A stretch of 64,000 nt of DNA from Antedon mediterranea. Its lineage: Eukaryota > Animalia > Echinodermata. Positions 3,942 to 29,893 of this stretch are shown here, in pieces. Position numbers and translations under genes: made by a program. The notes beneath the pieces were generated by a model that ran no database searches, was not told the DNA's origin, and saw only the letters and a list, made by a program, of their open reading frames with translations. The first letter of the stretch is position 1, and each line of letters begins with the position of its first letter. The stretch is taken from the NCBI RefSeq assembly GCF_964355755.1, contig NC_092677.1:4424101-4488100 (forward strand), given 5' to 3'.

Positions 3942-6900
3942 ATGGCTCAAGAAGAAGAGGAAACTGTACTTGGAATAAGTCGAAATTTCGGAGAAAACAC
4001 TTCTTCACATGGTATACCACGGATAGTAGCGTCAAAATCGTATTTTGGAAAGATCTTCTGGAGTTGTTTGTATGTTGCTTCTCTAGTGGCGTTCTCTTGG
4101 CAGGCCTATGTCCTCATCGATACATACTTCAAGTTTGAAGTTTCTATCAAAGTAAGTTAAGAACGTATCTATCATTTAATTTTACAAAGAAAATTTAAGA
4201 AAACAAGCTTACTGATGGCTACACAAATCATTCCAATCAAAGACTGTTTATATTTTTATAACTAATTTAGAAATCACATCCACACGGCCAATCGTAGACT
4301 TTTCGATGTTTGTCTGAAATAAAAGCTCAAGTAGTATACGTATGAAACGCCATATGTGCCAAAATATTAATCTTTTTACTAATAATTAAGTCAAAAGGCC
4401 TCGTTAAAAGTGATTAGGAATTAAATTGTAACTTTTGACTTACAGTATATCCATTTTTGTTTAAACTAATATAGCAATTAAGAGCCATTGTCTGTAAGAA
4501 TCAGAGAAATATCAAAAAGAGTGGCAGACTCAAAAAAATGGATTTCTTTCAAATTTTGCACATGGCTATATATGTGTTGAGAGAAATCAAATATGAAGTA
4601 TTTTTTATTTCACACGTATATTTCCATGGCAACGGCCAAATTTGTGTTTTTGACAAATTTTGTCCTTTTTTAAGGTTTTTTAAAATGGATATTGGTACTA
4701 CTTTGATGAACGATATTTTTGTGTTGTTCATTTAATTATAAAAAATAATTAGTGTATGCATAATAACAATGCATTGTGTACCTGTTTCACATTTTTTTAT
4801 TTTTTTTTATTTCATACTTTGGGAGATACCATTTATTTAAAAAGGGGTGTTTTTCACTTTTTTTAAATTGTTCAATGCAACTAAACTTTACTTCACCATA
4901 ACGCCCAAAGTGGTGTATTTTTTTAGCTGATTTATTACAAATAGGTAGTTCTAATGTTTAATAATTGATTTCTAAAATAAAATACTGGGGTAAATTTAAA
5001 ATCTACAAGCAGTGTTGCGAGAAACATAGGCATTTTTATAAAAAAAAAACATGGTATATTAGTAAAAACATTTTATTTTCTTTGATTATTTGATTTGAAA
5101 CTCATTGGTCAGAAAAATTCTTAATGTTTGATATAGTTCTAGTTGTGTTGTGAGAAAAAAAATTATTTTTTAATTATAGATTCTGTAATTCCCAGTTTTA
5201 ATGTCATTTTATAGGTTATATCCTCTGGAAATTTGAATAAATTATCAGATCGTTGTGAATTTTAATCTTTGCAACAGATTACTCCTCTCTTATTTTGAAG
5301 CTCCTCTTTCATTTGTTTACTTCTTTTATTTGCTAACCTAAGCAGATCCCACATGCCCATCCACCACCACTTTCGACTACCACCCCTCCCCCCACCCCGA
5401 CTATAACCACAAAAAGATAAACTGCAACACTTTGGTCGATCATCCACTATAGAGTGTCAAATGCATGCATTCAAGCACCACCCACACTGCCGCTACCATC
5501 GCCCCAAAGAATAGACGGATTCCAACTCCTCCATCCCACTCCATCCCACCCTCCCCTTTCTCCAAGCCACCACCCACCCCAAGTTAAAAATTGCAATGCA
5601 AAAGATAGGACATAAAGTTAAGTTTTTAGACCCTCGCCTTCAACCACCTAACTATTTAAAAGTCCTGGATCCACCACTTTCCCCTCCCCAAAATAGAACC
5701 AATCAAAAGTCAATGATATACTCAGGTATGTTAATTTCATTTCATTTAAGGTCAGCATGTAAAATATCACACTTTATTATTAAATATTGGTTTTAAATTC
5801 TATATTTTTTTTTAATGTGATGGTTGGATTCAGTATTAATTATTAATATTAATAATTATCTGATAATTATTTAATTTCTCTTAGTTATGCATAGCAACAG
5901 TTACTATGGTAACTAAAAATGAGATATTCTTTAGATTTTGCATATTTATCTCATACAAATTTAAATTTGTAGATTATTAGCAGGCATGCCTTATTTGCAT
6001 TTTCAAATTACCGTTTCACAAGGTCATATTTGTAAGCACTTTCTTCTGTGATTATTTTTATTCATGAAAACCCCATATTTTATTTACAGCGGCCACCTCC
6101 CTTAACGGACGCACTTTGAAAAGCCTGTTTGTTCTTCCTATCTAATTAGTGCATTTGGTGCTTACCGTAAGCAGCTGCGGGCACCTTTTTATACTAAAAA
6201 TGAGATTTTTTGTAAGCGGCCAATCGAAAAATGTGATACTTATTGCATGGACCTATGAATTAGAGGTGCATGTTTATTGTATTTCTTTATATATTAGCTT
6301 TATTTTGAAGAGGTTTTAAAAACATTACTGTGAAGAGATGAGAAAACTACACAGATTTTGACCGACCATTTTTCATATGATAAAAGTTTTTAAAATTTGT
6401 CTGAAAATGCTAAAAAATACTAAACCACCTGATTATAAATAATAATAGGCCTACAATTAGCTGGAAAATTGAGACGCTCGTTTCGTTAAGAATATCGTAT
6501 ATAGCTATAATAAGTGATTTTGGCCCTTTATCGGCAGAACCTCCCGTAAGGGGTCACCGCCCGTAAGCGGCCACTTTTCCAGGTCCCGAGGGTGGCCGCT
6601 TACGGGAGGTTCAACTGTATTTAAAAAAACAATTATCCTTAGTTACGCATAGAAACAGGTTCTAAGATAACATAAATAATACATTTTGACATAATGACCC
6701 AACAAATGACCCTTTCACAAGGTCACACATTTTCTGGGATTCAGTAGATAAGTAAATTTGGGAAAAGGTAGTAAAGCTATGTAATCAATTGTTTTTAGTC
6801 ATGAAACCCCATATTAAAAATATTGTACTTAGTTACGTATAGATGTCATTTGACCTCAATATGTAAAATTTTTTTTTTCATGAAACTCCATATTTAATTT

Positions 6901-28900: not shown

Positions 28901-29893
28901 TCTGTCTCGAAGCGGTAGCTCGTTATGGATACCTTCCATTACATACTAAGCCTATACTCGCATTTCAAAATCCTAAGAAAAGATGTTATTATATCATCAC
29001 ATTCAGCAACTTTTGTTTATCTTTAGGAAACATTATTAGAAAGTATTTATGCTATCAACCAAAATCATAGAAGTCATCTGTACAACATGGACACAGCGCA
29101 GTAAGTTTCATCAACACATTTTATATCTTTTTTCCCTCCATTTTAAATTCGGTAATATTTTTTTGTGTGTTTGGATAGAATAATGATGACGACTATCAGA
29201 CATTACTTAACTTATTGTGATTTATTTTAGGAAAAATCTTGCTCGTTTAGAGGTTTACTATGAGGACTTATCTTACATACACATATCTGAATCTCCTGCG
29301 TATTCAGTAAGTAAAGTTTAGGTATATTTTGGTTTATTTTATACAGTAATCACTTTTACATACATTTTAATAGGCCACTATTATTACTAATAGATATGCA
29401 TCTCTACTTATAATAATAAAATGACAATTTAATCGAAAAATGTTATTTAAGAAAAGTCTAATTTTATATTGCAATGTGTTTATTTTTATTAATTTTTTGG
29501 TTTTTGACAGGAGCTTATTAATTACAAGCTGTTGTTTCTTTTAGTATCTTTCTCTTTATCTATTTTTTTTTTATTAAACTGAAGTGAAATAAAATGAATT
29601 GGAGGGGTTTATAGAGGAAGAAGTAAAAAACATTCCTGACATTTTGTTTGCGATAGATTATAACATTTTTTCCCAAACAAAAACTCCTTTAAAACAGAAG
29701 AAAGAGATATGATATTTTTTTGTTGTAGTGGGAGAGTCTTTTTGGAGATATTGGCGGAACTCTTGGGCTGTACATTGGCTTATCAATGCTTACCGTGATC
29801 GAGTTCGTTGAGTTCGCTTTCGACATTACGATGTACATTGTAAATAAACTTTGCAGAAGAAACAAAGTTACTGAACTACAAGGTGGTATCTGA
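16928..29893 (+). CDS. DEG/ENaC subunit with 7 LDLa repeats, paralog 2, ~839 aa
   Basis: 18 exons: 16928-17131, 18313-18463, 19020-19136, 19531-19665, 19970-20131, 20493-20708, 21549-21653, 21897-22010, 22849-23176, 24159-24325, 24681-24844, 25171-25272, 25901-26009, 27735-27807, 28365-28422, 29027-29100, 29231-29306, 29729-29893. The total is 2520 nt, all GT-AG, with the same intron phases as paralog 1. Motifs: [23 protein letters not shown], and TM2 [23 protein letters not shown]. Confidence 0.93.
19020..22010 (+). CDS. LDLa cassette (7 modules on exons 3-8) of channel paralog 2
   Basis: [122 protein letters not shown] plus [83 protein letters not shown]. Confidence 0.93.
19321..19463. mobile_element. 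Short MITE family A, degenerate copy
   Basis: Starts aagctccgtctacactat and has the internal atatggtagtgatatg core. Related to copies at 22647, 23527, 28481 and 34410. Confidence 0.7.
22485..22644. mobile_element. Palindromic MITE family B
   Basis: aagccgattttccactaggcgaatttgttcgcgcgaat...attcgcgcgaacaaattcgcctagtggaaaatcggctt. Related ends occur at ~13626 and 41446-41741. Confidence 0.8.
22647..22830. mobile_element. Short MITE family A copy ending ~18 nt upstream of the exon 9 acceptor
   Basis: agctctccctagattatcaaac...gtttgatagtgtagacggagct, with internal tggtagtgatatgccc repeats. Confidence 0.8.
23343..23514. repeat. ~170-bp hairpin with ~80-bp arms, probably a non-autonomous TE
   Basis: aaataatgaatgttt..tggtacaaataatggcac..gtgaatgatgaaaggttatatcaac, loop tcggctttgcctc, then gttgatataacctttcatcattcac..gtgccattatttgtacca..aaacattcattattt. 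Confidence 0.85.
23527..23682. mobile_element. Short MITE family A copy
   Basis: aagctctgtctacaccatcaaact...aagtttgatagtgtagacaagtctt. Confidence 0.8.
24395..24520. repeat. 30-bp minisatellite, ~4 copies
   Basis: agaatgtgatatgacgtaagttagaggtcg units. Confidence 0.9.
26918..27190 (+). mobile_element. Helentron/DINE-like non-autonomous element fragment
   Basis: ttacctccaccaaggaggt followed by a (tgtt)n microsatellite and agcaggattactcaaaaagt, matching the layout of HINE/DINE-1-type 5' ends as I recall it. The right boundary is uncertain. Confidence 0.55.
28481..28660. mobile_element. Short MITE family A copy with expanded 21-bp internal repeat
   Basis: agctctgtttacactatcaaa...tttgatagtgtagacagagct, with (atatggcagtgatatgcccag) about 4 times. 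Confidence 0.85.

Follow-up and report, generated by a model that had tools for sequence, protein, structure and literature searches.

Two tandem crinoid genes encode DEG/ENaC subunits with seven LDLa modules inside the finger domain and belong to a broad-ranging, apparently undescribed variant of the family

DEG/ENaC channels are known to be triggered by protons, small peptides, proteases and force. Here we describe two tandem genes of this family, A and B, on a 64,000-nucleotide stretch of the genome of the crinoid Antedon mediterranea (NC_092677.1, positions 4,424,101 to 4,488,100 of the forward strand; hereafter the window), each with a cassette of seven LDLa modules built into the extracellular finger domain. 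The nearest precedent for a module-bearing DEG/ENaC is the set of Caenorhabditis elegans proteins EGAS-1 to -4, in which a DEG/ENaC domain is likewise joined to a cysteine-rich extracellular module (PMC10424705, PMC9478639). That module is EGF in EGAS and LDLa in the window genes, which have a normal HG motif and first transmembrane helix (TM1) and hold their modules within the finger.

The best solved matches of the channel core are vertebrate ENaC subunits (alpha, beta, gamma and delta; PDB 6wth, 9blr), which share with the window channels two transmembrane helices, the HG and FPAVT motifs, thumb cysteines, the GxS filter and the presence of an additional domain inserted between alpha1 and alpha2 of the finger. 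In the window proteins, however, an LDLa chain without a furin motif takes the place of GRIP with its protease sites. FaNaC (Aplysia 7yvb, Malacoceros 8on7) uses the same corner of the finger for ligand gating: a peptide binds in the alpha1-alpha3 pocket and gates the channel, and finger sequences diverge even among FaNaCs (PMC11026163). FaNaC differs from the window channels in lacking appended modules, its ligand being a small peptide that fits a pocket. LDLa modules are required for Neto2 to modulate GluK2 (PMC12618232) and for NRAP-1, which gates NMDA receptors (PMC11531325), but in Neto1/2 and NRAP-1 they sit on separate proteins acting on tetrameric glutamate receptors, whereas here they are part of the channel chain. 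Tandem LDLa repeats also recall the LDL receptor family (LDLR, VLDLR, LRP2), whose YWTD propeller, EGF repeats and single-pass type I topology are missing here, as is, for the most part, the lysine-binding pattern. The LDLa module of RXFP1/2 is reportedly essential for signalling and has been postulated to be a tethered agonist (bioRxiv 10.1101/2021.06.06.446989).

A six-frame motif scan of the window found DEG/ENaC motifs combined with LDLa motifs in two sets, which lie on the plus strand from 3.9 to 29.9 kb, without a third set elsewhere in the 64 kb; the genes were then built by hand. Gene A (3942..15124, plus strand) encodes a subunit of 824 amino acids and gene B (16928..29893, plus strand) one of 839, each in 18 exons without an internal stop. 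All 17 introns of B are GT-AG; A has 16 GT-AG introns and one GC-AG, intron 13 (13597-14068), which requires the GC donor, while the matching intron of B has GT. Exon count and intron phases are identical between the genes. Exons 3-8 begin and end in phase 1, and the reading frame is preserved if they are skipped. The original prediction of two tandem DEG/ENaC genes with a seven-LDLa insert is confirmed by these stop-free models together with the Pfam matches below, and the splice junctions it proposed (8564/9173, 11284/11606, 18463/19020 and 22010/22849) are exact exon borders of the rebuilt genes.

In gene A, exon 1 (3942..4151) encodes the HG motif and TM1, and exon 2 (8411..8564), which ends in phase 1, encodes FPAVTLCN and finger helix alpha1. 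The cassette follows, with LDLa1, a conserved anchor module, in exon 3 (9173..9292), LDLa2 in exon 4 (9591..9722), LDLa3 with a long loop insert in exon 5 (9984..10145), LDLa4 and LDLa5 together in exon 6 (10410..10634), LDLa6 in exon 7 (10947..11054) and the final module, LDLa7, in exon 8 (11171..11284). Exon 9 (11606..11927) holds family-specific post-insert helices, finger alpha2-alpha3 and a GHQ motif. Exons 10-18 (12308..15124) supply the beta-ball, thumb, knuckle and second transmembrane helix (TM2), at 12308-12417, 12617-12780, 13061-13162, 13489-13597 (followed by the GC donor), 14068-14140, 14283-14340, 14464-14537, 14679-14754 and 14963-15124. Gene B repeats this plan: HG and TM1 in exon 1 (16928..17131), FPAVTLCN and alpha1 in exon 2 (18313..18463), the anchor LDLa1 in exon 3 (19020..19136), LDLa2 in exon 4 (19531..19665), LDLa3 in exon 5 (19970..20131), LDLa4 and LDLa5 in exon 6 (20493..20708), LDLa6 in exon 7 (21549..21653), LDLa7 in exon 8 (21897..22010) and the post-insert helices, finger alpha2-alpha3 and GHQ in exon 9 (22849..23176). 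The remaining ectodomain and TM2 lie in exons 10-18 (24159..29893), at 24159-24325, 24681-24844, 25171-25272, 25901-26009, 27735-27807, 28365-28422, 29027-29100, 29231-29306 and 29729-29893. The two modules of exon 6 differ in cysteine content, with a surplus pair in LDLa4 and one pair missing from LDLa5, a pattern shared by A, B and Anneissia.

Pfam scans covered 24 of the 36 exon translations. Ldl_recept_a matched all 12 cassette exons, 11 of them at or above the curated score, with exon 4 of A below it (E 1.6e-4). ASC matched exons 1, 2, 11 and 18 in each gene. Exon 10 matched ASC in A and no domain in B, and exon 9 matched no domain in either gene. ASC and Ldl_recept_a were also the sole Pfam domains of three related crinoid proteins (P0001-P0003). 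Those proteins had no propeller or leucine-rich repeat match, and neither they nor the 24 window translations had an EGF match. Both genes have the HG motif before TM1 and FPAVTxCN after it, keep the thumb cysteines and GNC-x-TFN as invariant alignment columns, and read GLS at the TM2 filter motif. A hydropathy scan of each window protein detected, at its threshold, a single transmembrane helix out of the two; the structure model of P0003, the Anneissia ortholog of A, has long helices at 40-69 and 787-830. Foldseek matched that model to the hand-and-ball folds of FaNaC, which ranked first, ASIC1 and ENaC (E 1e-24 to 1e-21). By these results the two helices, motifs, thumb cysteines, filter and fold agree with those of DEG/ENaC channels.

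The cassette spans 286 amino acids in A and 282 in B, with 42 cysteines in each. A and B are 51.9% identical (421/811), and their synonymous sites are saturated (proportion of synonymous differences 0.89), while the corresponding nonsynonymous proportion is 0.35 in the cassette and 0.29 in the core. BLASTN gave no hit for 16 of the 17 intron pairs, the remaining pair matching over 26 nucleotides at the acceptor. These comparisons support selection on the cassette like that on the channel core, and together with the wide taxon range described below they bear out the earlier proposal that the modules are old and selected.

A crinoid relative shows the same organisation. P0003 of Anneissia japonica is a full-length ortholog of A (58.3% identity, 476/816) and runs from TM1 through the same seven modules in the same order to the core; P0002, the ortholog of B, shares its contig. 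Gene B matches an A. mediterranea RefSeq fragment (P0016) at 284 of 285 positions, and the public contig of that fragment also carries P0001, a third, recent paralog of A (88.6%). Contigs from sequencing runs X1 and X3 over window positions 9173-14537 show P0001 substitutions in exons of the core, and exons 3 and 6 differ in a like manner, which suggests that the P0001 gene may also have upstream LDLa exons absent from its public model.

No sequencing run was recorded as RNA; run X1 was guessed to be RNA, and runs X2 and X3 cover introns as DNA would. One X1 contig with paralog-type changes ends, by our own reading of the table, 0-2 bases from the borders of exons 11, 12, 14 and 16. Another ends exactly at the exon 9 donor with 144 letters beyond, where the DNA run X3 continues into introns. 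In gene B, two of the eight listed X1 pieces end exactly at LDLa-exon donors, those of exons 3 and 6, and have further letters without a match, and others read unspliced through donors; the listed pieces are a selected subset, which makes any chance estimate for donor-ending pieces unreliable. These contig ends suggest splicing indirectly.

Relatives were gathered by three protein searches and one exhaustive search and classified by Pfam scans and record names. LDLa modules, called by a local profile, were present in 78 of the 210 fetched core-bearing proteins (isoforms included). Fifty-two of these 78 have the N-terminal part, 44 with a complete HG-TM1, and every one of the 52 has its modules between that part and the core. 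Within echinoderms the combination of ASC and LDLa occurs in crinoids, the sea stars Acanthaster and Patiria and the brittle star Amphiura, and within hemichordates in Saccoglossus, Ptychodera and Glandiceps. Outside Ambulacraria it occurs in the acoel Symsagittifera, four gastropod genera and Penaeus (a model without TM1). LDLa number ranges from 1 to 13, and the added or substituted cargo includes Kringle, PAN, discoidin (F5/8 type C), CUB, TSP1, SRCR, HYR, ShK and Link modules. Amphioxus relatives carry discoidin, Kringle and Link modules and no LDLa, the sea-urchin relatives found carry low-complexity inserts, and single hemichordate species hold many paralogs with different cargo. The cassette has a far greater age and taxonomic spread than the original prediction recognised, and LDLa shares its site in the finger with many other types of cargo.

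Some records have additional features before the channel. P0056, P0116 and P0216, from Saccoglossus LOC100366994 and another relative (two distinct proteins), have a signal-peptide-like start and a weak fn3 match ahead of HG/TM1, LDLa and ASC; the same prefix contains EGF-like cysteine repeats, seen by eye without a Pfam match, and an extra hydrophobic segment. The prefix is reminiscent of EGAS and might reflect the fusion of gene models.

A core-only tree of 180 rows and 306 columns, from which isoforms, cluster mates and rows with fewer than 230 covered residues were dropped, was built without named ENaC, MEC-4 or FaNaC, and its supports are from the Shimodaira-Hasegawa-like approximate likelihood ratio test (SH-aLRT) only. 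All deuterostome modular channels, the acoel protein and the Penaeus model form a 106-row clade (SH-aLRT 99), within which 64 rows make up a mainly ambulacrarian modular subclade (SH-aLRT 94; a smaller tree gave 87). Inside the large clade the Penaeus model, which carries eight LDLa modules, clusters with the acoel protein, and the two rows nearest to the model have no LDLa match (P0174, P0147, P0171). Snail LDLa channels form a separate group (SH-aLRT 99), but forcing them into the large clade was not rejected by an approximately unbiased test (p 0.058, 82 rows), and an independent origin of the snail channels is not established by these sequences. An affinity to the ENaC side of the family may be read from the solved-structure searches, in which human ENaC subunits rank first; a published phylogeny places uncharacterised ambulacrarian channels in that clade, its main text making no mention of extra domains (PMC10507113).

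The proposed placement of the cassette in the finger holds, both from the 52 of 52 proteins with intervening modules and from the insert site itself. The insert lies between finger helices alpha1 and alpha2 and replaces approximately residues 145-274 of alpha-ENaC; GRIP is located between the same helices in ENaC (PMC6197857). The segment after the insert aligns with Aplysia FaNaC from residue 159. A suggested equivalence between the family's PPDW tryptophan and the alpha2 tryptophan of ENaC was dropped, as a profile alignment places the ENaC residue nearer the DYSDL segment.

The first module is set apart from those behind it. Among 31 ambulacrarian proteins, 30 have the first cysteine of this module 38-45 residues past the FP motif, the remaining one being not measurable; in three of four snail proteins the distance is about 50 residues. 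A C[IV]Kx[YF] signature marks 20 of 31 first modules, none of 141 middle modules and one of 31 last modules, and first modules are more alike to one another (identity 0.39) than are other pairings (0.28-0.31). Non-cysteine conservation is 0.55 in LDLa1, 0.50 in the core and 0.28 in modules 3-5, with K144 of LDLa1 at 96% and D134 at 100% of 33 alignment rows. In the model of a natural relative with two modules, the mean predicted local distance difference test score (pLDDT) is 86.8, with 82-94 from alpha1 through LDLa1 and 59-73 in the last module.

We hypothesize that these proteins are receptor-channels in which variable outer modules bind an extracellular macromolecule and the signal reaches the gate through a fixed LDLa1, a reading we advance tentatively and at just under an even chance. 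It is based on the constancy of LDLa1 while the cargo behind it changes, the insert site, the intact pore motifs and selection on the cassette, with GRIP and the FaNaC pocket as precedents for gating from this corner of the finger and Neto2 and NRAP-1 as precedents for LDLa modules that alter kainate and NMDA receptor gating. According to this mechanism, A and B subunits would trimerise and conduct sodium, with LDLa1 packed on the finger where GRIP would be. A protein, glycan or matrix ligand bound to the outer modules would then shift LDLa1, the finger and the thumb, and so open or tune the pore, and exon shuffling and skipping would alter what is sensed. The 21 modules per trimer envisaged at first assume full exon inclusion and an all-armed trimer; two Patiria isoforms differ by exactly one 44-amino-acid module.

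Several observations weigh against the receptor-channel reading and should temper it. The 33-row alignment behind the conservation values was chosen for the presence of LDLa1 and includes close paralogs, and pLDDT is no measure of whether LDLa1 packs on the finger. In the seven-module model the core folds well and matches FaNaC, ASIC and ENaC, yet residues 123-142 are mostly below a pLDDT of 50 and modules 3-5 are unresolved. The N-terminal part is absent from 26 of the 78 LDLa-bearing proteins. Sister channels of the same clade carry purely low-complexity inserts, so the finger site tolerates non-modular sequence. In this sister group (P0024-P0028 and P0019-P0021, from sea urchins, Antedon and hemichordates), the inserts are rich in Ser, Gly, Tyr, Trp and Asp and occupy the same finger site, and some have basic, cleavage-like clusters. 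No exon-exon joint, the exon 2/3 and exon 8/9 fusion junctions included, is among the joints listed for mapped reads, a listing dominated by repeats. The Anneissia model P0002 has the last two modules only, and the same-species RefSeq models are cut short (P0016 is a 285-amino-acid fragment, and P0001 lacks TM1 and five modules); annotation is therefore not proof of the whole fusion. Finally, the EGAS proteins, which are comparable to the window channels, gave no current as homomers in oocytes (PMC10424705).

The main rival is that the modules act as a tether, with no soluble ligand: anchored through them to a neighbouring cell or to extracellular matrix, the channel would be opened by force, or the modules would do no more than cluster or localise it. 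Discoidin, Link, TSP1 and CUB are matrix- or glycan-binding by family, and many of the cargo types are of this kind. A tether model has also been proposed for MEC-4, UNC-105 and ENaC (PMC10148893), and EGAS genes mark IL2 sensory neurons and have themselves been termed putative mechanoreceptors (PMC9478639). The paralogs with different cargo inside single hemichordate species, by contrast, resemble a diversified sensing repertoire more than one tether. We consider the tether rather unlikely, while recognising that it shares most of its anatomy with the ligand reading and that sequence cannot separate the two.

It is also conceivable, and in our view improbable, that the acidic LDLa chain itself senses calcium or protons and gates the channel by a change of shape. 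The terminal DE pair is kept in all 14 window modules, acidic residues outnumber basic ones in both cassettes (67 vs 29 in A, 59 vs 18 in B), and the LDLa fold is stabilised by calcium (PMC11531325). This explanation leaves the swaps to Kringle, PAN, discoidin and SRCR and the range of 1 to 13 modules unaccounted for, and calcium in sea water would saturate such sites.

We likewise see little chance that the cassette is an inhibitory cap like ENaC GRIP, to be removed or loosened by a protease. It has the position of GRIP, searches of solved structures match the core best to human ENaC subunits, and the inserts of some LDLa-free relatives contain basic clusters. A furin-type R-x-x-R site, however, is absent from A, B and P0001-P0003, and the 42 insert cysteines per gene fit compact, disulfide-bonded modules. 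The earlier suggestion of a lipoprotein as gating ligand is weakened. The combination of an aromatic residue and two aspartates, the lysine-docking pattern of LDL-receptor ligand repeats, is kept in one of seven modules in A and two of seven in B (3 of 14 overall), and family-wide in 38 of 136 middle modules and one of 39 last modules. Since most modules lack this pattern and the furin site is missing, lipoprotein or furin gating of these channels appears unlikely.

That the fusion is a gene-model artefact, or that the cassette is usually skipped to leave an ordinary working channel, is very improbable. In favour of it, exons 3-8 are symmetrical, the listed joints lack the junctions and the same-species RefSeq models are split. 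Against it, the cassette is selected like the core, the models built give it neither a start exon nor a signal exon, the match of X1 contigs to the window breaks off at two cassette donors and leaves further letters unmatched, and the same join recurs in independent crinoid, sea star, hemichordate, acoel and snail models, several of them with RefSeq isoform series.

The rest of the window contains retroelements. A BEL/Pao long terminal repeat element lies on the minus strand at 57766-63334, with DUF1759, reverse transcriptase, Peptidase_A17 and an integrase zinc finger, and a fragmented minus-strand element at 51137-56170 resembles DIRS-type retroelements in combining a reverse transcriptase with a tyrosine recombinase. 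Four introns of gene B hold copies of a single short element that contains an internal tandem unit and has a very high copy number (approximately 19320-19480, 22630-22830, 23520-23680 and 28470-28660).

No description of LDLa-bearing DEG/ENaCs was found in open-access full text; subscription papers and most supplements, which were out of reach, may list them. Three papers on DEG/ENaC channels (PMC9822975, PMC10507113, PMC10148893) never use 'LDL' in their main text, and ASC, amiloride, degenerin and Ldl_recept are absent from two supplements of PMC4729200. An ESM Atlas search at 0.85 returned generic ASC clusters only. As had been anticipated, the domain pair does exist in automated annotations, under names such as 'degenerin mec-10-like' and 'uncharacterized protein'. 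The claim of novelty thus stands for LDLa-bearing channels as far as open-access literature goes, but it had missed the precedent of EGAS, with EGF plus ASC. We conclude that the variant of this known family to which the genes belong is real, broad in range and, it appears, undescribed.

Testing the matrix-tether model of force gating has proved difficult, since the partner that serves as tether is a distinct and uncertain one. In the channels described here the candidate binding modules are within the channel chain, on separate in-frame exons, and nature provides a series of 1 to 13 LDLa modules alongside other module types; deletion and swapping of modules can therefore ask whether a macromolecule or a tether gates a DEG/ENaC. 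More broadly, it is possible, though we would sooner doubt it than rely on it, that these proteins represent an ancient class of channels gated directly by proteins, glycans or matrix, in which the finger is an exon-shuffling socket with a fixed LDLa adaptor and swappable recognition modules. This class would have expanded as a repertoire in hemichordates and echinoderms, with relatives in amphioxus and the acoel, and may have been reinvented in snails. Should gating by a macromolecule or a tether hold, these channels would be ionotropic receptors of large ligands and could serve as natural scaffolds in the construction of sensors. These comparisons suggest that GRIP of ENaC is a single example of the many inserts that a very ancient socket has received.

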